A stretch of DNA of 63,341 bases, filler included, from Candidatus Woesearchaeota archaeon CG1_02_57_44 (GTDB lineage Archaea; Nanobdellota; Nanobdellia; Woesearchaeales; CG1-02-57-44), in assembly GCA_001871415.1 (NCBI GenBank). It is 4 parts of 4 records of this genome, joined end to end, with 100 filler letters (N's around TTAATTAATTAA, not from the genome) between each part and the next. Parts side by side here need not be neighbours in the genome. Positions count along the whole stretch, not along the records: positions 1 to 25,777 come from MNWW01000053.1; 3 more parts are not named here. The stretch is one strand, 5' to 3'. This document shows positions 16,429 through 57,644 of this stretch, piece by piece (position 1 is the first letter of the stretch; each line of letters opens with the position of its first letter). The position numbers and the translations under genes were made by a program. Under the pieces are notes generated by a model that had not been told where the DNA came from, searched no databases, and saw only the letters and a list, made by a program, of their open reading frames with translations.

Positions 16429-17933
16429 GGAGCATCCTCCTTGGCGCCCTTATTGTTTATTGCCTTCGTATCCTGTTCATTCACCGTCACACCCATCACT
16501 AGCCTGTTTGTCTCCTCTACTGCACGACCCGTCTTCGCGTTGCGCTCCTGCAGAAGTCGCGACTGCCTGATGATCTCTTGCATGACCGCGAGAGCCGCGT
16601 CCTCGTCAAGGCCCAACTGCTTGGCATCTCTTCGCGCGGTATCCAGCACCGCCGCTTCGCGACCCTGATCGAGCACAGCCGCCCCTTGCTTTATTTTCTG
16701 CGTTCCTATCTGCGCGACGATACCCTGCCGTCTTGTGAGATGCACCATCAGTTCCTGATCCAATGCATCGATGCATCGACGAAGTGATGCGATTTCATCA
16801 ACCCCTCCAGAGGATACCGAGCAGGACAGTGCAGGAGCATCCGTTGAGACACAATCCTTATAGCAATGCAGTATCAATTCTGTTTCAGCACCGATGAGCC
16901 ACGGCTCGCTTGTGTCGCCCATGCCTGACAGCCTGACAAAGCGGGCAGCACCGTGTGATGATTTCTTGTCCATGCGCATACTGGCGAGCAGCGCTGCGTC
17001 TGCGACATCAGGAACCATCGTCGGAAGCCCAGCAGCAGTGAGCACGGAAAGCAAGAGCTCACGCTCATCAGGGAGTATATGGCCGAGGCGCTCCAGGAGC
17101 AATGACTCGACGCTCAATCCCATGGCGACGCAGGCGCCATGAGAGAACGCATAGCCTGACAATTGCTCAATAGCATGACCGATAGTATGGCCGAAGTTCA
17201 GTATGACGCGCCTGCCTTGCTCAGCCATGTCATCCGCGACGACGGCCTGCTTGAAGTCCATGCAGTGCCGTATGACGCGCTCGACGCCGGGTGACGCAAC
17301 GGATACAGACAGATCCCTCAGCGATGCGATGTCCTTGAGCAACGCCGCATTGCTGAGCATCGCGGTCTTGATGGCTTCAGCCATCCCGTTGCGCAGCTCC
17401 TCATCAGGCAGCGTCGCCAGAAGGTCCATGTCAGCGAAGACTGCTGAGGGTTCATGGAAAGCGCCGATGAGATTCTTTCCCTGGGCGACGTCGATGGCGG
17501 TCTTGCCACCGATAGACGCGTCCACCATGGCCAACAAGGTGGTAGGCACCGTGCACCAGGGAATGCCCCTGCAGTAGGTCGCCGCGACGAATCCCGCGAG
17601 GTCCGTCAAGCTGCCGCCTCCTATCGCGATGATGGCGCTGTCCCGGCCAAAGCCTGCATCAAGCATCGAGTCCTCTATCCACGTCTTCATGGCGCGGGTC
17701 TTGAGCGCGGGTACTGCGATGCGGACAGTACCTGCGGGCAACGCAGCAAGCAATCGGGACACGAACGCGCCATGCAGCTTGGCTACGTTCTGGTCCACGA
17801 TGACAGCGATGCACCTGCCCTTCCAGGTGTCGGTGACGAAGCTGGCGATGTCATCAGCAAGCCCGTGGCCAAGCTGCAGCTTCGGCCGTGGATTCAGCCG
17901 CTCTTTCGCTGTCGCGTCTCGCGCATCCTTCAT
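16425..17933 (-). CDS. aroB: 3-dehydroquinate synthase - chorismate mutase (AroQ type) fusion
   Basis: GGGSLTDLAGF, PTTLLAMVDASIGGK, LNFGHTIGHA (AroB); C-terminal LRRCIDALDQEL...IGTQK...DQGRE...SRLLQ (CM). Confidence 0.92.
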   Translation of the reverse strand: MKDARDATAKERLNPRPKLQLGHGLADDIASFVTDTWKGRCIAVIVDQNVAKLHGAFVSRLLAALPAGTVRIAVPALKTRAMKTWIEDSMLDAGFGRDSAIIAIGGGSLTDLAGFVAATYCRGIPWCTVPTTLLAMVDASIGGKTAIDVAQGKNLIGAFHEPSAVFADMDLLATLPDEELRNGMAEAIKTAMLSNAALLKDIASLRDLSVSVASPGVERVIRHCMDFKQAVVADDMAEQGRRVILNFGHTIGHAIEQLSGYAFSHGACVAMGLSVESLLLERLGHILPDERELLLSVLTAAGLPTMVPDVADAALLASMRMDKKSSHGAARFVRLSGMGDTSEPWLIGAETELILHCYKDCVSTDAPALSCSVSSGGVDEIASLRRCIDALDQELMVHLTRRQGIVAQIGTQKIKQGAAVLDQGREAAVLDTARRDAKQLGLDEDAALAVMQEIIRQSRLLQERNAKTGRAVEETNRLVMGVTVNEQDTKAINNKGAKEDAP

Positions 17934-18964
17934 GTCTCGTCCCTCACCGCCGTGTGCATCGCCCTGGCCTTGCGGATGATGACCGCGAGCGTCTCAGGCG
18001 TGACCTGCTGGAACGCGTCGGTCAATGCCTCTTCCGGTCTCGGGTGCATCTCTATCATCAGTCCGTCAGCTCCTGCTGCGACAGAGGCAAGGCTCATGGG
18101 CATAATAAGGTTGCGCCGGCCAGTGCCGTGGCTGGGGTCCGAGAAGATGGGTAGATGAGAGAGCTCGTACTTGATGGCCGCGACGCTGTTAAGGTCAAGG
18201 GTATTGCGCGTGTATTTCTCGAACGTGGTGATGCCGCGCTCACATAATATGACCTTTGTGTTGCCATGGCTCATGATGCGCTCGGCGCAAAGCAGCCATT
18301 CCTCAAGCAAGGTTCCCATCTCGCGCTTCAGGAACACGGGGCGCTTCTGTTTGCCCAGCTCATTGAGCAGATGGAAGTTCCTGCCGTTCCTGCTACCGAC
18401 CTGGATGATATCGATATCGTATTTCTCGAATAGCGGCAGTTGCGCCTCGCTCATGATCTCCGTCACCACAGGCAGGCCATATTTGTCCCGCGCCTTGGCG
18501 AGCAGCGCCAGTCCTTCCTCGCCCAGTCCTTCGAATGCATAGGGACTGGTGCGTGGCTTGAACGCGCCACCGCGCAGGATATCGCCGCCCGCTTCCTTGA
18601 TCGCCCTGGCACTGGCCATGATCTGCTCTTCTGATTCAACGGTACATGGACCGGCCATGATGACCAGCTTGCCGTTGCCGATGCTGAGATTGCCGACCGT
18701 GAAGCTGGTGTACGAGCTCTTGCCATTGACGTGCTGATGATATTCCTTGCTCGCGAGCTTGTAGTTCTTGCTGATGCGATACACGTCCTGCACGCCCGGC
18801 AGGCGAAGCTGGTCCTCGTGTATCTTGCTCACGTCCCCTCGGACGCCGAGCACAGACCTCTCGGTACCCACTATCTCGGCAGCGTCAAGGCCAAGCGCCT
18901 TGATGCGTGCTACGACCTTGTCTTTCTGCCCTTTCGTTGCCATCCTGTCCATCTTCACTATCAT
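17930..18964 (-). CDS. aroF: DAHP synthase type I-beta with N-terminal ferredoxin/ACT-like regulatory domain
   Basis: AGPCTVES, GGAFKPRTSPY, LCERGI, DPSHGTG, IEMHP; GAGGTGA SD at 18971-18977. Confidence 0.95.
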   Translation of the reverse strand: MIVKMDRMATKGQKDKVVARIKALGLDAAEIVGTERSVLGVRGDVSKIHEDQLRLPGVQDVYRISKNYKLASKEYHQHVNGKSSYTSFTVGNLSIGNGKLVIMAGPCTVESEEQIMASARAIKEAGGDILRGGAFKPRTSPYAFEGLGEEGLALLAKARDKYGLPVVTEIMSEAQLPLFEKYDIDIIQVGSRNGRNFHLLNELGKQKRPVFLKREMGTLLEEWLLCAERIMSHGNTKVILCERGITTFEKYTRNTLDLNSVAAIKYELSHLPIFSDPSHGTGRRNLIMPMSLASVAAGADGLMIEMHPRPEEALTDAFQQVTPETLAVIIRKARAMHTAVRDET

Positions 18965-19080
18965 CGTTGTTCACCTCAGTAATGTGCGATAATCATTGAT
19001 ATGCTTACCAATATGGCGCATGAGCGTATGCCTGCCACCCAATGCTGCCGAAGAGGGCTGATAGATTGGTACGCATCCAC

Positions 19081-19096
19081 AGGGAAAAAGGAAAAA
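19081..19096 (-). terminator. Pyrimidine/oligo-U tract in aro operon leader (candidate conditional terminator)
   Basis: Minus strand TTTTTCCTTTTTCCCT between the leader peptide and aroF. Confidence 0.5.
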
Positions 19097-19230
19097 TCGC
19101 TGCTATATAGAGAAGATGTATCGCGTGCTGGATGTGATATCGCGTTCTGGATATAGTATGGCTATAGACAATACATCCCTCTTTCGCTCATGCGCGTCGG
19201 GCGTGTAATCTGGAACTTCCCGGACAATGG

Positions 19231-19266
19231 GAGCGTTCATGCGCCAGAAACAGGCAATGAACGCTC
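19231..19266 (-). promoter_or_regulatory. Leader hairpin beginning inside the leader-peptide stop codon
   Basis: GAGCGTTCAT (19266-19257) pairs perfectly with ATGAACGCTC (19240-19231), with an inner TGCC/GGCG extension. Confidence 0.7.
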
Positions 19267-19327
19267 AGGAGCGAAAATAGAAGTAGGACTGGCCAAAGAA
19301 CAATGCCTGCGTGGCCGTCGCATTCAT
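19265..19327 (-). CDS. Putative Phe/Tyr leader peptide MNATATQALFFGQSYFYFRS
   Basis: ATG AAT GCG ACG GCC ACG CAG GCA TTG TTC TTT GGC CAG TCC TAC TTC TAT TTT CGC TCC TGA; 6 of 9 consecutive codons are Phe/Tyr; directly upstream of the Phe/Tyr operon. Confidence 0.8.
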   Translation of the reverse strand: MNATATQALFFGQSYFYFRS

Positions 19328-19350
19328 GCACCTTCGCAGGTTGCGGGAAG

Positions 19351-19359
19351 TATATAAAA
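19351..19359 (-). promoter_or_regulatory. TATA box of aro leader transcript
   Basis: TTTTATATA ending 23 nt before the leader ATG, a spacing that fits a leaderless transcript. Confidence 0.75.
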
Positions 19360-19488
19360 CTATTGCTCACGACGTATCGTTCACCCTGTAGATGCAAAGA
19401 TATGCAGACGCATTGCTTGCACAAGAAATCCACGATTTCTTTGTGTTACGAAGCGGATGTTCAGATAAGGCTGTTTCTTTATAAAGGC

Positions 19489-19980
19489 TTAGAACTTCCA
19501 TCCTTCAGTTCTAAACATCTCTACAATATCGATGCATTCTACTGATTTTTGCCCGCAAACAAAGGGTATTTTGACCTTATTCCCTCTAAGTTTCTCCTCA
19601 GTTACTACTATTCTTTTAATCTTGAATAGTGTTTGTTGTGACTGTGCTGAGAGTTCTATTGCTAGGGCAATTACCCAAGGATCTGCTGAATGCTTTGCAT
19701 TGACATCGATTAGAGCAGGATAATCTTTGAGAATCTCTTGCACTACCTGTATTTGCCTTGCAGTAGGCGCTTTAAAGAGCTTCTTTTGCTTTTTTGCCCA
19801 TTTTGCTAAGGTGTCGTCATAATCCTGAATTTCCTTAAGGACTTCTCTTGGCGCTATGAGGCGATCATTTTGTATGAGTTCACTGATGTTCTTCCATACA
19901 CTGACATAAACGTCCATTGCGTTATGCTTGTTTAGTTCTATAAGGGAAGAAGTGTCGATGATGTAAACATTAGTAGTCAT
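19489..19980 (-). CDS. PIN-domain protein (DUF4411-like)
   Basis: YIIDTSSLI, REVLKEI, ADPWVIALA, VVTEE, KIPFVC. Confidence 0.85.
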   Translation of the reverse strand: MTTNVYIIDTSSLIELNKHNAMDVYVSVWKNISELIQNDRLIAPREVLKEIQDYDDTLAKWAKKQKKLFKAPTARQIQVVQEILKDYPALIDVNAKHSADPWVIALAIELSAQSQQTLFKIKRIVVTEEKLRGNKVKIPFVCGQKSVECIDIVEMFRTEGWKF

Positions 19981-21131
19981 TTTTTCGCCTTTGAGAGTAC
20001 CTTGTCAAAACTCTTTGATTTGATTGATAAGTAGCTGAGAGCATCGGTATAGGTGATGTAATTCTTGTCATAATTATTTGCGACCAAAGAAATAAACTTG
20101 TTGCCGACTTCAGAAAGGCATCTCACTTCTGATTTTATGCCTCCCCCGCCCTTCTTCTCCATTTCTTTCTTTGGAATTGCTTCTTCTTTGTACTGGCTTA
20201 ATTTTTTCTCATAATCAGTCTTTGTAATGTACTTGAGCTTTAGCATATTTACCAAAAGCATCGCCTTGCTCACTTTATACCTGTTTGAAAGCGTCTTTAA
20301 GATAGCTCTTTGGAGTAATTGCGACTTGTTCTCATCAAAAACAGGTTTAGCTATTTCTTTTGGCAATAGGAATGCTGAGGCGAATTCATTGCACCACCTT
20401 TCGACTTCATCTTTGTATGATGCTGTTGCTTCTGGCAGATCAATGACAGATTCTCCCAATAGAATGTGCCCAAACTCATGCATCATCGAGAAGATTCTTG
20501 CTTCAATAGAGTCTTTTGTATTGACGACTATGACACTTGGCGTTTCATCTGCAAAGACGAATCCTCTTGCATCTTCTACAGGCATGGAGAACTGGAACAA
20601 GAAGATGTTGTACTCTTCCAGAACATCCCTTAAGTAGTTGAACAGCTCATAAGGGTTCTTGAATTTCTTTTGTCTTTCTTCTGTAAGAGTAAAGAGTTCC
20701 CTATACTGCTTGGCTATTGATTCAGGGCGTTCACTGATTTTTATTCTCTTGATCTTTGATCCTGTTTCGTAAGCGATGTTTCTTGAAAGCTCTTTGCTTA
20801 ATTCCTGAAGCTTCCTTGATTTTCTCATGACAAGAATGGTCTTTTTATCAAAAATATTTGTCTTACTTGGAAGCATCCTGTAATCTTTTGGCTTTGGCTT
20901 TTCTTGAAGTGGTTTTGAGAGCAGGAATGACGCGATAGGTCTCTTGAAAATGATTGATAACTCTTCCAACTGCCTGTATGTTGGCTTTTTTTCCTTGTTC
21001 AGGAACTTATCTATAGTCTGAGGGCTTGTCTTAAGACGCTTCGCTACCTCTTCCTTTGTCCATCCTGAACTCCCAATAAGCCATTTCAGGACAGACGGTT
21101 CAATGTCCACGAGGATTTGATTTCTAGCCAT
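19977..21131 (-). CDS. XRE HTH + ImmA/IrrE-family metallopeptidase
   Basis: N-terminal HTH (KPTYRQLEELS); FSMMHEFGH (HExxH); ERWCNEFASAFLLP; low GC. Confidence 0.9.
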   Translation of the reverse strand: MARNQILVDIEPSVLKWLIGSSGWTKEEVAKRLKTSPQTIDKFLNKEKKPTYRQLEELSIIFKRPIASFLLSKPLQEKPKPKDYRMLPSKTNIFDKKTILVMRKSRKLQELSKELSRNIAYETGSKIKRIKISERPESIAKQYRELFTLTEERQKKFKNPYELFNYLRDVLEEYNIFLFQFSMPVEDARGFVFADETPSVIVVNTKDSIEARIFSMMHEFGHILLGESVIDLPEATASYKDEVERWCNEFASAFLLPKEIAKPVFDENKSQLLQRAILKTLSNRYKVSKAMLLVNMLKLKYITKTDYEKKLSQYKEEAIPKKEMEKKGGGGIKSEVRCLSEVGNKFISLVANNYDKNYITYTDALSYLSIKSKSFDKVLSKAKK

Positions 21132-21138
21132 TTTATCT

Positions 21139-21170
21139 ATGCATCACCAACTTAATGCATCACCAACTTA
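21139..21170. repeat. Perfect 16-bp tandem duplication ATGCATCACCAACTTA x2
   Basis: 21139-21154 = 21155-21170. Confidence 0.9.
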
Positions 21171-21358
21171 ATTATGAATATTCCTGCTCCAGTTCCAAAA
21201 ATACTGAACACTAATCCACTGATGTAAAACATACCCGGGAATGTTGGCAGAGATAGCGAACCAATGATGCCACCAACGAAAAACAATACTACAAACACAA
21301 TTGCGTAAACTATTATTTCCTCAATTTGTCCTTTCTTATTATGGATTAAACTTTTCAT
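21152..21358 (-). CDS. Small membrane protein with class III (prepilin-like) signal peptide
   Basis: MKSLIHNKKGQ followed by a hydrophobic helix; second TM segment; GGAG SD. Confidence 0.7.
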   Translation of the reverse strand: MKSLIHNKKGQIEEIIVYAIVFVVLFFVGGIIGSLSLPTFPGMFYISGLVFSIFGTGAGIFIIKLVMH

Positions 21359-21389
21359 TTTAAATTCTCCATGTTTGACGACCCTTGCA

Positions 21390-22487
21390 TCAGCGCACGT
21401 GAGCCAGAGCCCCATGCGGCTTACCATGTTCGGCCAGATACGCGCGCGCATCCCGCACAGGTGTTAGCCGATCGAAGTGTATCGAGTCGGTAGGGCTATC
21501 ACGGTATGCAAGGACAAGAGTACCCTCAGGACTTGCGGCCATGGCCGCATGCAGGCATCCTGCGGTCCCCCGGTTCTCCATCTCAGGACGCAGACGTCCG
21601 GTGAACTCCTCGGTGAGACGGGTTCCTGCAAACATATCAGCGACAACAAGTCTATTGGCATTCATGGCATACACGAACCCTCCTGCGCAGCTGACATCAT
21701 CGATCCAGGAGAGCTTGCGGATAAGCGCATCGGGCTTTCCCGTCTCATCCATGCTGGCCACAGCGAGCCAGGAATTATCCAGGAACGCACCGAGGTAATG
21801 CCGAGAGCCGCGCGCATCCTCCACCGTGCCCAGCACACCAGTGAACTGCCCATAGGCATAGCCACCATGCAAGCCGAAGCGCCGCATATCATCGTAGGAA
21901 TGATCGAGTGAGAAGACCTCGTCTATTGTGCCGGAATCGCGTTCAGCTCTCGCGAGCATGCGATATTCTATGGCTTCCTTGCCGACCACGCCATCCGCCC
22001 CCGGCACCCAGTCAACTGCGTAACCAAGGACCGTATCGCCATCCATCGCCGCGACGCTGTGCAGCTGCCTCATGCCGCCATCGGTCCTGCGCCTCGCGAT
22101 GGGGTAGGTGCCGATCGCATTGCCTGACAGGTCGTATATCGTGCCATCCTGATCGCCAGTGAGAGCATAGCTTGGATAGGATGAAGGCACTTGCGCGAAC
22201 AGCTGACCCTTAGCGACATGGGTGACATAGTGGAATTTTTGCAGGGTAGCCAGCTGCTGGGCAGGCCCTTCATCAAGGGGGACTCGCCAGACCTGCGCCC
22301 CATGAGGGGCATCAGGAGAATAATCCTTGTTTCTATCAGGGTTTGAGAGATGGAGTATGAGCGCGCCCTCAACAATGAAGGAGTGGCCTGTATGGGCGAT
22401 ACTGCCAGGAATCGCTGGCCTGCAATCGCGCACCAGCTCGTATAGGTCGCAAAGCGCTACAGGATCCTGCTGATGTGATGCTGCCAT
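21390..22487 (-). CDS. Hypothetical protein (possibly beta-propeller-like)
   Basis: 365-aa ORF with GAGGT SD; beta-rich composition. Confidence 0.65.
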   Translation of the reverse strand: MAASHQQDPVALCDLYELVRDCRPAIPGSIAHTGHSFIVEGALILHLSNPDRNKDYSPDAPHGAQVWRVPLDEGPAQQLATLQKFHYVTHVAKGQLFAQVPSSYPSYALTGDQDGTIYDLSGNAIGTYPIARRRTDGGMRQLHSVAAMDGDTVLGYAVDWVPGADGVVGKEAIEYRMLARAERDSGTIDEVFSLDHSYDDMRRFGLHGGYAYGQFTGVLGTVEDARGSRHYLGAFLDNSWLAVASMDETGKPDALIRKLSWIDDVSCAGGFVYAMNANRLVVADMFAGTRLTEEFTGRLRPEMENRGTAGCLHAAMAASPEGTLVLAYRDSPTDSIHFDRLTPVRDARAYLAEHGKPHGALAHVR

Positions 22488-22925: not shown

Positions 22926-23741
22926 CTACTTCCCCGTCGGGATAGTGACCTTCATGCCCTTCCACGCGAGGTTGAAGAGCTCCTCGAGCGCGCTGGCGAA
23001 GAACGGGGTGTTCACCCAGATACCCACATCGTAGGTCGGGTGCACTTCCTTGTCATCGAGCACCATGAAGATGACTTCCTTACCGTCGACGACGATGAAG
23101 CGCCCCTTGGTCGGGCTGTTCCTGACCTCGGCCACGTCCTTGAGATCCTTGACCGCGTCAGCGCACTCCTTAGTGAGCTGTGTCGCGATGCGTATCTTGA
23201 CGCCACGCTTCTTGAGCTTCTGGAAGGTCTCCTTGAATCCTTCGACCTTGCGCATCAGGCCCTGCGGCGTGGTCATGATGATGACACTCTCTTCCGCGTT
23301 CCTGACGGTCAACTCCATGTGATTGTAGAGGTTATGCCTGCCGCGAAGGCTGCCGGAAAGGTCTGTTGGCTCAACGAGCTCAACGCCCTGCGTATGCAAG
23401 GTATTAAGTTCCTGGACAATGTCTGATTCCTTGAGCGACTCCAGGCGCTCGATGCGATCGTCAGATTCCTTGCGCATATTCTTCTTGACGCGCTCGACAA
23501 CCTCGGTCGGATGAACAGCGTAATACTTGATGGGCTTGCCGACCTTCATGATGACAAAGCCCTTCTTCTCCAATGACTCGAGCACATCGTAGCTTCTGCT
23601 GCGCGGCACGTTCGCGATGTCAGAGAGCTCGCCTGCGGTGCTGACACCACGCGAGAGCAGCGCGGTCCATATCTTGACCTCATAGAGGTTCAGTGCGAAA
23701 TATCTGCGTAGCTTGCTGAGGAATTCCTCTTTGACGATCAT
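22926..23741 (-). CDS. TrmB-family transcriptional regulator
   Basis: LNLYEVKIWTALL...VPRSRSYDVLESLEKKG HTH plus PLD-like C-terminal domain; GGAGG SD before MIVKEEF. Confidence 0.92.
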   Translation of the reverse strand: MIVKEEFLSKLRRYFALNLYEVKIWTALLSRGVSTAGELSDIANVPRSRSYDVLESLEKKGFVIMKVGKPIKYYAVHPTEVVERVKKNMRKESDDRIERLESLKESDIVQELNTLHTQGVELVEPTDLSGSLRGRHNLYNHMELTVRNAEESVIIMTTPQGLMRKVEGFKETFQKLKKRGVKIRIATQLTKECADAVKDLKDVAEVRNSPTKGRFIVVDGKEVIFMVLDDKEVHPTYDVGIWVNTPFFASALEELFNLAWKGMKVTIPTGK

Positions 23742-23998
23742 GTTTCTCCCTCCGTTCCCCCCGAATGAATGATAAGTCCTGGCAATCACTGCCAAATAAC
23801 ATCTAGGGAAATTGAAACATAACTGGTATTTAAATATTGCTAGTTGCGGACCGAAAACCTATCAGGCAGTATGTGCCTAGAAGCTAGTGGCATCTGTATT
23901 TGTCGTCGGAAAAATAGGGTCGAAGCGTGGTCGGTTATAAGTGACAAGATGAATCTCTAAAATCACAATTACACGAGGACAACAGATAGGGAGCCATA

Positions 23999-25777: not shown

Positions 25778-25877
25778 NNNNNNNNNNNNNNNNNNNNNNN
25801 NNNNNNNNNNNNNNNNNNNNNTTAATTAATTAANNNNNNNNNNNNNNNNNNNNNNNNNNNNNNNNNNNNNNNNNNNN
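25778..25877. other. Artificial contig linker
   Basis: 100 nt: N-run, TTAATTAATTAA (stops in all frames), N-run. Confidence 0.98.
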
Positions 25878-51495: not shown

Positions 51496-51595
51496 NNNNN
51501 NNNNNNNNNNNNNNNNNNNNNNNNNNNNNNNNNNNNNNNTTAATTAATTAANNNNNNNNNNNNNNNNNNNNNNNNNNNNNNNNNNNNNNNNNNNN
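51496..51595. other. Artificial contig linker
   Basis: N-TTAATTAATTAA-N, 100 nt. Confidence 0.98.
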
Positions 51596-57544: not shown

Positions 57545-57644
57545 NNNNNNNNNNNNNNNNNNNNNNNNNNNNNNNNNNNNNNNNNNNNTTAATTAATTAA
57601 NNNNNNNNNNNNNNNNNNNNNNNNNNNNNNNNNNNNNNNNNNNN
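57545..57644. other. Artificial contig linker
   Basis: N-TTAATTAATTAA-N, 100 nt. Confidence 0.98.

Follow-up and report, generated by a model that had tools for sequence, protein, structure and literature searches.

A conserved, putatively leaderless Phe/Tyr leader peptide ahead of the aromatic amino acid operon of a woesearchaeal genome

Can an archaeal ribosome report the supply of an amino acid to the genes that make it? Leader-peptide attenuation is a textbook bacterial mechanism, and the question of an archaeal counterpart is raised by a short open reading frame (sORF) rich in Phe and Tyr codons that lies upstream of aroF in the metagenome-assembled genome (MAG) of Candidatus Woesearchaeota archaeon CG1_02_57_44 (GCA_001871415.1). 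We analyzed a stretch of 63,341 nt from this genome (the window), which consists of contigs joined by N runs (25778-25877, 51496-51595 and 57545-57644) and of which positions 1-25777 are one genome contig. All coordinates are positions in the whole window, and the leader and its operon are read on the minus strand. The original prediction was that of a leader attenuator, in which ribosome stalling on Phe/Tyr codons would switch the fold of the leader and thereby control read-through into aroF at a U-tract. Our analysis supports the sensor part of this model, as the leaders are conserved and their codons track the pathway, and does not support the part in which a fold switch acts on a U-tract terminator. 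We consider it probable (about 0.72) that the sORF is a cis-acting leader peptide through which the ribosome informs the aro-tyrA/pheA-pheST operon of how much charged tRNA-Phe and tRNA-Tyr is available.

On re-reading the minus strand, the TATA box, the start codon, the 20-codon sORF and its codon run were all found where the original prediction had placed them (Table 1). The spacer in question measures 524 nt and is bounded by the stop of a DUF4411 gene (19489) and the ATG of aroF at 18964. Its TATA box, TTTTATATA, is directly preceded by an A-rich stretch resembling a B recognition element (BRE), and the sORF opens with ATG at 19327 and closes with TGA at 19267-19265. The aromatic run uses both synonymous codons for Phe and for Tyr, contains no Trp codon, and ends two codons ahead of the stop. 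The predicted hairpin, with perfect arms that start within the stop codon, was recovered by an inverted-repeat search; its 5′ arm begins at the second base of the stop codon and its 3′ arm includes an ATG at 19240. The 60 nt from the stop codon onward fold with -24.2 kcal/mol (z = -3.89), the strongest hairpin in the leader family described below. The distance of 300 nt between the sORF stop and aroF, on the same strand, was verified, and so was the presence of a T tract (T5CCT5) between the hairpin and aroF; oligo-T is the archaeal type of termination signal. Two further premises, an archaeal host and an operon for Phe and Tyr precursors that is free of trp genes, also held and are taken up below.

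The leaderless promoter geometry claimed for the sORF, a perfect TATA box at a gap of 23 nt, marks real genes in this genome. In a genome scan for TATA boxes with at most one mismatch to TTTWWATA that end 20–26 nt before an ATG, this geometry was found at 470 ATGs, 279 of which begin ORFs of at least 100 codons. Thus, leaderless mRNAs are common in this genome. ORFs of at most 60 codons are opened by 158 ATGs with this spacing, and only the leader sORF among them has at least six aromatic residues in 10. We found no convincing candidate for another amino-acid leader among these 158 TATA-driven short ORFs, which include a few weak Thr-, His- or Val-rich ones.

The codon run is also rare in itself. 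At least six Phe or Tyr (F/Y) in nine codons are reached by 3 of the 15,990 ATG sORFs of 8–60 codons in all six frames of the genome, the leader sORF being one of the three, and F, Y and Trp (W) together make up 7.2% of codons in the long ORFs of this genome. As the spacer is AT-richer than the genome (47% vs 57% GC), it was shuffled with its dinucleotides kept; a sense sORF this rich in F/Y appeared in a fraction of 0.00095 of 20,000 such shuffles of the 524-nt spacer. The junction between a neighboring low-GC island, the leader and aroF is repeated at 99.9–100% identity in two independent metagenome contigs (L036 and L038) and is therefore not an assembly artefact. All five differences from these contigs fall within aroF, with no single-nucleotide polymorphism (SNP) in the leader.

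The original prediction implied that F/Y-rich sORFs should precede homologous operons in related genomes. This was borne out: the DAHPS operons of 26 other genomes, nearly all from different families, are preceded by comparable leaderless aromatic sORFs that differ in sequence and mix synonymous codons. The sORFs were selected by script on ATG start, length and F/Y/W density alone. The first sample comprised 151 genomes of the same order, 48 of which have DAHPS homologues (36–60% identical), and 30 loci were taken from these. At 11 of the 17 other order loci with a spacer of at least 100 nt before DAHPS, a sense ATG sORF has at least six F/Y/W in its last 10 residues. Each of these 11 sORFs was equalled by at most 1 in 1000 shuffles, and the best antisense sORF always had fewer than six. 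One locus is weaker (L013; four F/Y/W in the last 10 residues, 46/1000 shuffles), another has its aromatic run mid-peptide (L016), and four loci of this sample have no aromatic sORF (L012, L027, L030 and L032). Further positives are L011, at 61% GC, L018, L024 and L014. At L018 and L024 the sORF precedes a small gene that itself precedes DAHPS, and at L014 it heads a four-gene operon with DAHPS internal and encodes a peptide that likewise begins MNAT. A second sample, taken at phylum level (301 genomes), gave 8 positives among 19 new loci, all 8 in the same order, and the sORF was absent from the three loci in this sample that belong to other orders of the class. Two more positives came from a comparison of DAHPS paralogues. 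An unpublished genome (G131) is counted in the first-sample and trpE tallies with one negative row (L007), and no positive claim depends on it.

As contrast sets we used named DAHPS loci, nearly all bacterial, of which 1 of 80 had such an sORF, and scorable metagenome loci, of which 2 of 50 did. The metagenome scan returned the same population (L036, L038) together with distant homologues that are mostly high-GC and bacterial-looking. Bacterial DAHPS loci with aromatic upstream sORFs were noted in a Sumerlaeia bacterium MAG (L166) and in high-GC metagenome contigs (L071, L072 and L081), for example ...FTGFYFWFSG. Most likely these are ordinary attenuators of the bacterial kind.

Many families of the order share the promoter spacing, the C-terminal aromatic run and the hairpin at the stop codon, and the first and the last of these played no part in selecting the sORFs. 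A TATA box with at most one mismatch lies 20–26 nt upstream of 12 of 16 leaders (11 of them perfect), compared with 5 of 202 control ATGs from the same regions (binomial P = 9e-17). By eye, L028 gains the same spacing if an internal ATG is taken as its start. For the hairpin, 23 of 24 leaders have their first paired base, in a 60-nt fold from the stop onward, at 0–6 nt from the initial base of the stop codon. Against dinucleotide shuffles this 60-nt window has a mean z of -1.61 (n = 23 distinct leaders, Stouffer -7.7), and the control windows gave +0.28 upstream of the ATG, +0.18 over the final 60 nt of the leader and -0.71 in the 5′ part of the sORF (Mann-Whitney P = 1.8e-4). RNAalifold on the four alignable leaders (L019, L022, L028 and L133) recovers the stop-abutting helix, A:C, with 8 of 11 pairs compensatory. 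A second helix, B:D (9–15 bp per sequence), crosses A:C in the same four leaders, and the two would therefore form a pseudoknot or be alternatives to each other.

Between the sORF and the gene, promoters are scarce. A perfect TATA box is seen in 0 of 23 leaders and one with a single mismatch in 8, while 15 have not even the latter. Thus, the sORF promoter is the sole recognizable promoter of the operon in most relatives. Together with the TATA spacing, this scarcity suggests that the sORF is the first cistron, at the very 5′ end of the mRNA.

A sensing role is supported most directly by the way in which the codon content of the leaders tracks the pathway. Over 24 distinct leaders, trpE (PF00425) was found in 10 of the 14 genomes whose leader has a Trp codon and not found in 8 of the 10 whose leader has none (2 × 2 table 10, 4 / 2, 8; Fisher one-sided P = 0.018). 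Removal of three doubtful leaders gives 9/12 and 8/9 (9, 3 / 1, 8; P = 0.006), and both P values are overstated because the genomes are related. Of the four Trp-positive, trpE-negative genomes, two are only 75% and 82% complete (G150 and G069). The present locus fits the correlation, as its leader has no Trp codon and trpE was not found. Its operon is indeed Phe/Tyr-specific: it includes a TyrA-PheA fusion and pheST, and a search of this 82%-complete genome found neither anthranilate synthase (trpE) nor a true TrpA.

Operons for Trp appear to have leaders of their own. Two genomes (G119 and G102) carry two DAHPS paralogues each, and in both the aro-operon copy has an F/Y/W-rich leader. A 13–14-codon sORF that ends ...NWRWN or ...GSWR precedes the DAHPS-trpE-trpG copy, 22 nt downstream of a perfect TATA box. 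Among 20 trpE upstream regions, all six TATA-driven sORFs have Trp in their last five residues, compared with a background of 41 of 249 TATA-driven sORFs over all order loci that is inflated by the leaders themselves (P = 2e-5). The remaining 14 regions showed no such sORF under the filters used. These short Trp-ending TATA-driven sORFs are candidates for a second class of archaeal leader peptides. No uniform output structure was found in the short Trp leaders, and only L246 has a clear anti-Shine-Dalgarno (anti-SD) sequence, 11 nt after the stop. The Trp-leader loci noted are L226 (G119), L228 (G102), L229 (G085), L238, L239, L245, L246, L248 and L250, with the endings ...NWRWN, ...GSWR, ...CPWR, ...YRWL, ...MEWC, ...YPWQ and ...NWCWWL.

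How would such a leader work? Judging from the promoter geometry, transcription would start ∼23–25 nt past the TATA box, on the A of ATG 19327 or adjacent to it, and the ribosome would load at the 5′ end of a leaderless mRNA. When Phe- or Tyr-tRNA is scarce, it would linger on the six aromatic codons; when both are ample, it would proceed to the stop and depart. The position of the ribosome would then set whether or when the hairpin at the stop codon forms, and through this the expression level of the downstream operon. The comparisons above lend good support to reading the sORF as a genuine archaeal leader peptide, aromatic and conserved, that has a sensor role. That the sORF is translated, that ribosomes stall on it, and what sign and kind of output follow are inferences from the sequence.

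Several observations weigh against this reading, beginning with the output. A consensus scan of 18900-19600 for bacterial-type terminators (hairpin plus U) gave 0 sites. The T5CCT5 tract has no adjacent hairpin, and the 268 nt after the stop-codon hairpin fold no better than shuffles (z = -0.81). T-runs of at least five after the stop occur in only 7 of the 16 first leaders, and their position is not fixed. A fold switch at the T tract is not predicted either, as the structure computed next to T5CCT5 is the same with leader positions 1-66, 1-72 or 1-78 masked by a ribosome. The proposal that stalling switches the fold and controls read-through at the U-tract was thus not sustained: no terminator was found, the predicted structure is invariant to masking, and the T-runs are not conserved in position. 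Unmasking of the aroF Shine-Dalgarno (SD) sequence fails as well, its thermodynamically predicted accessibility being nearly unchanged (0.48, 0.56, 0.52 and 0.53 with no ribosome and with a ribosome at the first aromatic codon, the last aromatic codon and the stop, respectively); a two-state test agrees, and the family means for the same four states are 0.38, 0.39, 0.42 and 0.44 (n = 23, not significant). The aromatic run as a general anti-SD was considered too and rejected, since it was seen in L019 only. Furthermore, the run ends two codons before the stop, so that a ribosome stalled on the last Phe codon would, by an estimate from ribosome footprint sizes, cover few bases of the hairpin arm. 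As only the first arm bases would be reached, it is uncertain in which direction a switch would even work.

The comparative evidence has points on the same side. For longer operons with DAHPS at an internal position, the search mostly found no sORF, with one clear (L014) and one ambiguous case in 10 extended loci; the antisense background of this search was three matches in ∼57 kb. The Trp/trpE correlation is based on 24 related, partly incomplete genomes. The genome studied here has no close relative, the next DAHPS being only 53–55% identical, and, of the family members with no gene in between, none has a longer gap from sORF to gene than its 300 nt, most relatives having 66–162 nt.

Repeats within the leader offer further pairings. 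Three copies of the motif GCGCATGARCG are present in RNA sense, one where the sORF starts, one in the hairpin 3′ arm and one as segment S3, and there are two of its complement, at the sORF end/hairpin 5′ arm and as segment S4. The possible pairings are S1:S2 (10/10), S3:S4 (11/11), S1:S3 (14/16) and S2:S4 (12/13), with duplex energies of -22.9 kcal/mol for S3:S4 and -18.6 kcal/mol for S1:S3. Among the five segments S0-S4 alternative structures can form, and no ribosome-dependent change near the T tract or the SD is predicted.

Each copy of the motif includes ATGA. In the 383 nt from 19327 to 18945 on the minus strand this start/stop overlap occurs five times, the sORF start, two motif copies and the aroF start included. 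Of the three frames that read through the aromatic run, the stops are TGA 19267, TGA 19239, which overlaps ATG 19240, and TGA 19190, which overlaps ATG 19191. The ATGA endings of the +1 and -1 frames would be the geometry of termination-reinitiation coupling.

From this layout we can offer a guess at the output of the leader at this locus. The hairpin would conceal ATG 19240, and a ribosome held at the end of the sORF would uncover it. Translation of the 45-codon ORF that begins there would keep RNA polymerase coupled through the oligo-T tract, and otherwise transcription would stop at T5CCT5, either intrinsically or via a factor such as the archaeal termination factor FttA/aCPSF1. The sign of control would be right in such a relay, which we nevertheless regard as unlikely to be the actual output. 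We saw no SD upstream of the 45-codon ORF, and the ORF is not conserved in the relatives, whose leaders are shorter. Effects on mRNA stability or on aroF translation are other candidates for the output.

Extended to the order, the leaders could make up an aromatic ribulon in these small-genome Woesearchaeota-like archaea. Leaderless leader peptides matched to their operons would gate a stop-abutting helix without a bacterial-type terminator, perhaps via the relay at the locus described here, and their vocabulary would be Phe/Tyr, Phe/Tyr/Trp or Trp alone, depending on the product of the operon. We put this forward tentatively, as a reading that is less likely than not to be right.

Among the rival explanations, the one that survives best takes the sORF as a relic or decoupled unit. 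Its transcript would end at T5CCT5, aroF would be expressed mainly from a second promoter at TCTATATA, with a regulator acting at a tandem 19-nt repeat, and the leader would contribute little or nothing. Indeed, the 300-nt gap holds this TATA-like box with its single mismatch and, just upstream of it, the tandem repeats (together 19156-19104), so that aroF may also, or mainly, have its own promoter. The double oligo-T tract separates the sORF unit from aroF, the gap exceeds that of most relatives as noted, and a gene for a TrmB-family regulator lies nearby. However, neither the sORF nor its perfect TATA box nor its hairpin is degraded, and no other hairpin in the family is as strong. Perfect internal TATA boxes are absent from all 23 leaders, TATA-like strings with one mismatch are common at 47–49% GC, and a second promoter would be compatible with read-through control from the first. 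We therefore consider a decoupled unit improbable.

The same part of the gap contains a second, weak sORF of 23 codons, with its ATG 27 nt after the second TATA-like box and its end 40 nt before aroF; its fold is unremarkable (z = -0.06). The region 19156-19005 could be another leader-like unit of lesser strength, or else a promoter of its own that includes regulator sites. Paralogy of the two sORF units is not supported; BLASTP between the two sORFs finds nothing.

The sORF could also be a functional aromatic-rich micro-protein or a translation-priming first cistron, linked to DAHPS and not sensing amino-acid supply. This would agree with a conserved, apparently translated small ORF that has a hydrophobic aromatic C-terminus, and with the fact that no output switch could be demonstrated. 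However, the conservation is in composition and position only, and the peptide sequence is not conserved. The Trp content of the leaders follows the presence of trpE, and Trp operons have their own Trp-ending mini-ORFs of just 8–14 codons. Taken together, these three observations fit a codon sensor better than a folded product, and we judge the micro-protein quite improbable. Chance, in which a T/C-rich tract beside a TATA-like string happens to read as Phe/Tyr codons, is very hard to sustain: the locus was picked post hoc out of 63 kb and its spacer, AT-richer than the genome, favors TTY/TAY codons, but shuffles of the same local composition reach the density in only 0.00095 of cases, the genome in 3 of 15,990 sORFs, and the architecture is repeated in 26 other genomes, where TATA boxes and hairpins give it independent support.

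The host is an archaeon, as presumed. The genome is a MAG of 1.53 Mb in 77 contigs that encodes TBP, detected with a profile that matches only the four archaeal controls, and a full-length archaeal small-subunit rRNA. Its DPANN/Woesearchaeota label is plausible from these data. The closest named DAHPS is that of a Candidatus Woesearchaeota archaeon MAG (53% identity), most other matches being bacterial, and no sORF is visible within 600 nt upstream of DAHPS in that MAG.

Table 1 lists the features of the locus and its surroundings. In the operon the aromatic pathway is condensed into fusion genes, and both PheRS subunits close the same gene string. One metagenome contig (L037) matches window positions 16774-18418 at 99.8% and beyond that point, in mid-DAHPS, differs from it altogether, as a strain variant or a chimeric assembly would. 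On the other side, the leader promoter adjoins a low-GC island at 19400-21400 (2 kb, ∼38% GC, with flanks of 55–63% GC), which in addition to the two genes in the table holds a 99-aa ORF without a Pfam match. The island resembles an acquired pair of the toxin-antitoxin-like or defence type. In the gap from the DUF4411 stop to the leader TATA box, a 67-nt stretch (19390-19456, minus strand) is 75% identical to L002:1501-1567, which is intergenic in the genome of another family (G024). It is single-copy in the genome, has no Rfam match, and is predicted to fold into two hairpins (CACAAAGAAAT...ATTTCTTGTG), with a TATA-like string, CTTTATAAAG, ∼25 nt upstream. This stretch may be a small RNA or a terminator.

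TABLE 1. Sequence features of the leader locus, the downstream operon and the flanking DNA, in window positions.
Feature	Position	Strand	Remarks
TATA box TTTTATATA	19359-19351	-	Read from sequence; ends 23 nt before ATG 19327
TATA 8-mer TTTATATA	19358-19351	-	Perfect match to TATA pattern, gap 23
Leader-peptide sORF, putatively leaderless	19327-19265	-	20 codons + TGA; peptide MNATATQALFFGQSYFYFRS
Phe/Tyr codon run TTC TTT ggc cag tcc TAC TTC TAT TTT	19300-19274	-	6 F/Y in 9 codons
Hairpin at stop codon, arms GAGCGTTCAT/ATGAACGCTC	19266-19257 + 19240-19231	-	Perfect 10-bp arms; 16-nt loop
Second ORF	19240-19103	-	45 codons + TAG; ATG overlaps TGA of +1 frame; ends 6 nt before T5CCT5
Segment S3 ACGCGCATGAGCGAAA	19197-19182	-	Third motif copy; pairs with S4 (11/11) or sORF end S1 (14/16)
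Tandem 19-nt direct repeat	19156-19119	-	79% identity; just upstream of second TATA-like box; possible regulator site
Second TATA-like box TCTATATA	19111-19104	-	1 mismatch; 139 nt before aroF ATG; possible internal promoter
T5CCT5 tract	19096-19085	-	Between sORF and aroF
Second, weak sORF	19076-19005	-	23 codons + TAA; ends ...GWQAYAHAPYW; contains S4
Segment S4 ACGCTCATGCGCCA	19027-19014	-	Motif complement; pairs with S3 or S2
SD GAGGTGA of aroF	18977-18971	-	6 nt before ATG 18964
Operon, 9 co-oriented genes downstream of leader	18964-5861	-	Pfam scans
DAHPS (aroF), ferredoxin-like N-domain (FXD)	18964-17930	-	Pfam
Dehydroquinate (DHQ) synthase-chorismate mutase fusion	17933-16425	-	Pfam
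DHQase-shikimate dehydrogenase fusion	16428-14371	-	685 aa; Pfam
EPSPS	14374-12983	-	Pfam
Shikimate kinase	12986-12345	-	Pfam
Chorismate synthase	12342-11194	-	Pfam
Prephenate dehydrogenase-dehydratase fusion (TyrA-PheA)	11260-9296	-	Pfam
PheRS alpha	9252-7609	-	Pfam
PheRS beta	7609-5861	-	Pfam
DUF4411 gene	19489-19980	-	In low-GC island; Pfam
HTH_3 + IrrE/M78-peptidase gene	19977-21131	-	In low-GC island; Pfam
TrmB-family transcriptional regulator gene	22926-23795	-	3.5 kb upstream of leader, past island

How does the leader compare with systems already described? The Rfam covariance models (cmscan, 18000-20500, E ≤ 1) gave no leader family and only a chance match to IRES_Bip elsewhere, and a tRNA scan found none near the leader; the accession of the Rfam family Phe_leader is presumably RF01859. 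Like pheL-pheA and the pheST leader of Escherichia coli, the latter of which we take to be the one named pheM, the locus has a Phe-codon-rich short ORF before genes of the Phe pathway and/or Phe-tRNA synthetase, with a hairpin at the end of the leader ORF. According to the review PMC11802643, E. coli pheA and pheST are attenuated via Phe-charged tRNA. At the archaeal locus both targets (pheA-like and pheST) are united in one operon. Unlike the E. coli leaders, it has a TATA/BRE promoter, a putatively leaderless mRNA and no leader SD, and mixes Tyr with Phe codons. Nor was a hairpin-plus-U terminator or a demonstrable 1:2/2:3/3:4 set found in it.

Two other systems resemble the locus. In Corynebacterium glutamicum the aroR leader (Phe-Tyr-Phe) precedes aroF, and ribosome stalling raises transcription (Neshat et al., 2014, per PMC11802643). 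Here, too, a leader peptide with Phe/Tyr codons stands directly before an operon that begins with DAHP synthase; unlike it, the C. glutamicum leader is bacterial, with a bacterial terminator and a Phe-Tyr-Phe triplet, whereas the archaeal locus has six aromatic residues in nine codons on a putatively leaderless mRNA. In the mycobacterial Cys ribulon, a ribosome stalled on a leaderless poly-Cys sORF releases a ribosome-binding site from sequestration (Canestrari et al., bioRxiv 10.1101/834739). The likenesses to this system are an sORF, putatively leaderless at the archaeal locus, with cognate codons as the first cistron of a biosynthetic operon, the absence of a classical terminator, and several operons of one pathway with sORFs (aro and trp in relatives of this archaeon). 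The differences are that SD accessibility is predicted to be unchanged, both at the locus and in the family, and that the domain of life and the initiation machinery are not the same. In function the nearest of these systems are those of E. coli and C. glutamicum, and in architecture the mycobacterial class, which acts on translation and not on termination. The logic of sensing is common to the archaeal locus and all three. Since neither the terminator of the classical systems nor the SD unmasking of the mycobacterial one was found, we describe the archaeal locus as working like a leader-peptide attenuator and claim membership of neither class.

For Archaea, a Thermococcus kodakarensis transcriptome paper from 2014 states that direct experimental support for attenuators or riboswitches was lacking (PMC4247193). 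A ribosome profiling (Ribo-seq) paper on Haloferax calls sORFs in 5′ untranslated regions “reminiscent” of leader peptides (PMC10117724), and a Methanosarcina Ribo-seq study mentions potential upstream ORFs as possible regulators of downstream translation (PMC11456600). Our search of full-text literature, with subscription-only papers and supplements lying outside it, found no amino-acid-sensing leader peptide described in any archaeon.

If the ribulon reading is true, ribosome-mediated attenuation would be seen in Archaea for the first time, and the leaders would offer a natural read-out of the coupling between archaeal transcription and translation. With a conserved set of leaders matched to their amino acids, the sensing of charged tRNA by ribosomes would cross the domain boundary; a TATA promoter and a leaderless mRNA would serve for it, and the bacterial hairpin-plus-U terminator would be dispensable. 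The leaders, at ∼100–370 nt, would provide a compact natural test bed for the effect of archaeal translation on transcription termination or mRNA fate. For the organisms themselves, it would mean that reduced DPANN-type genomes retain fine control of a costly pathway.

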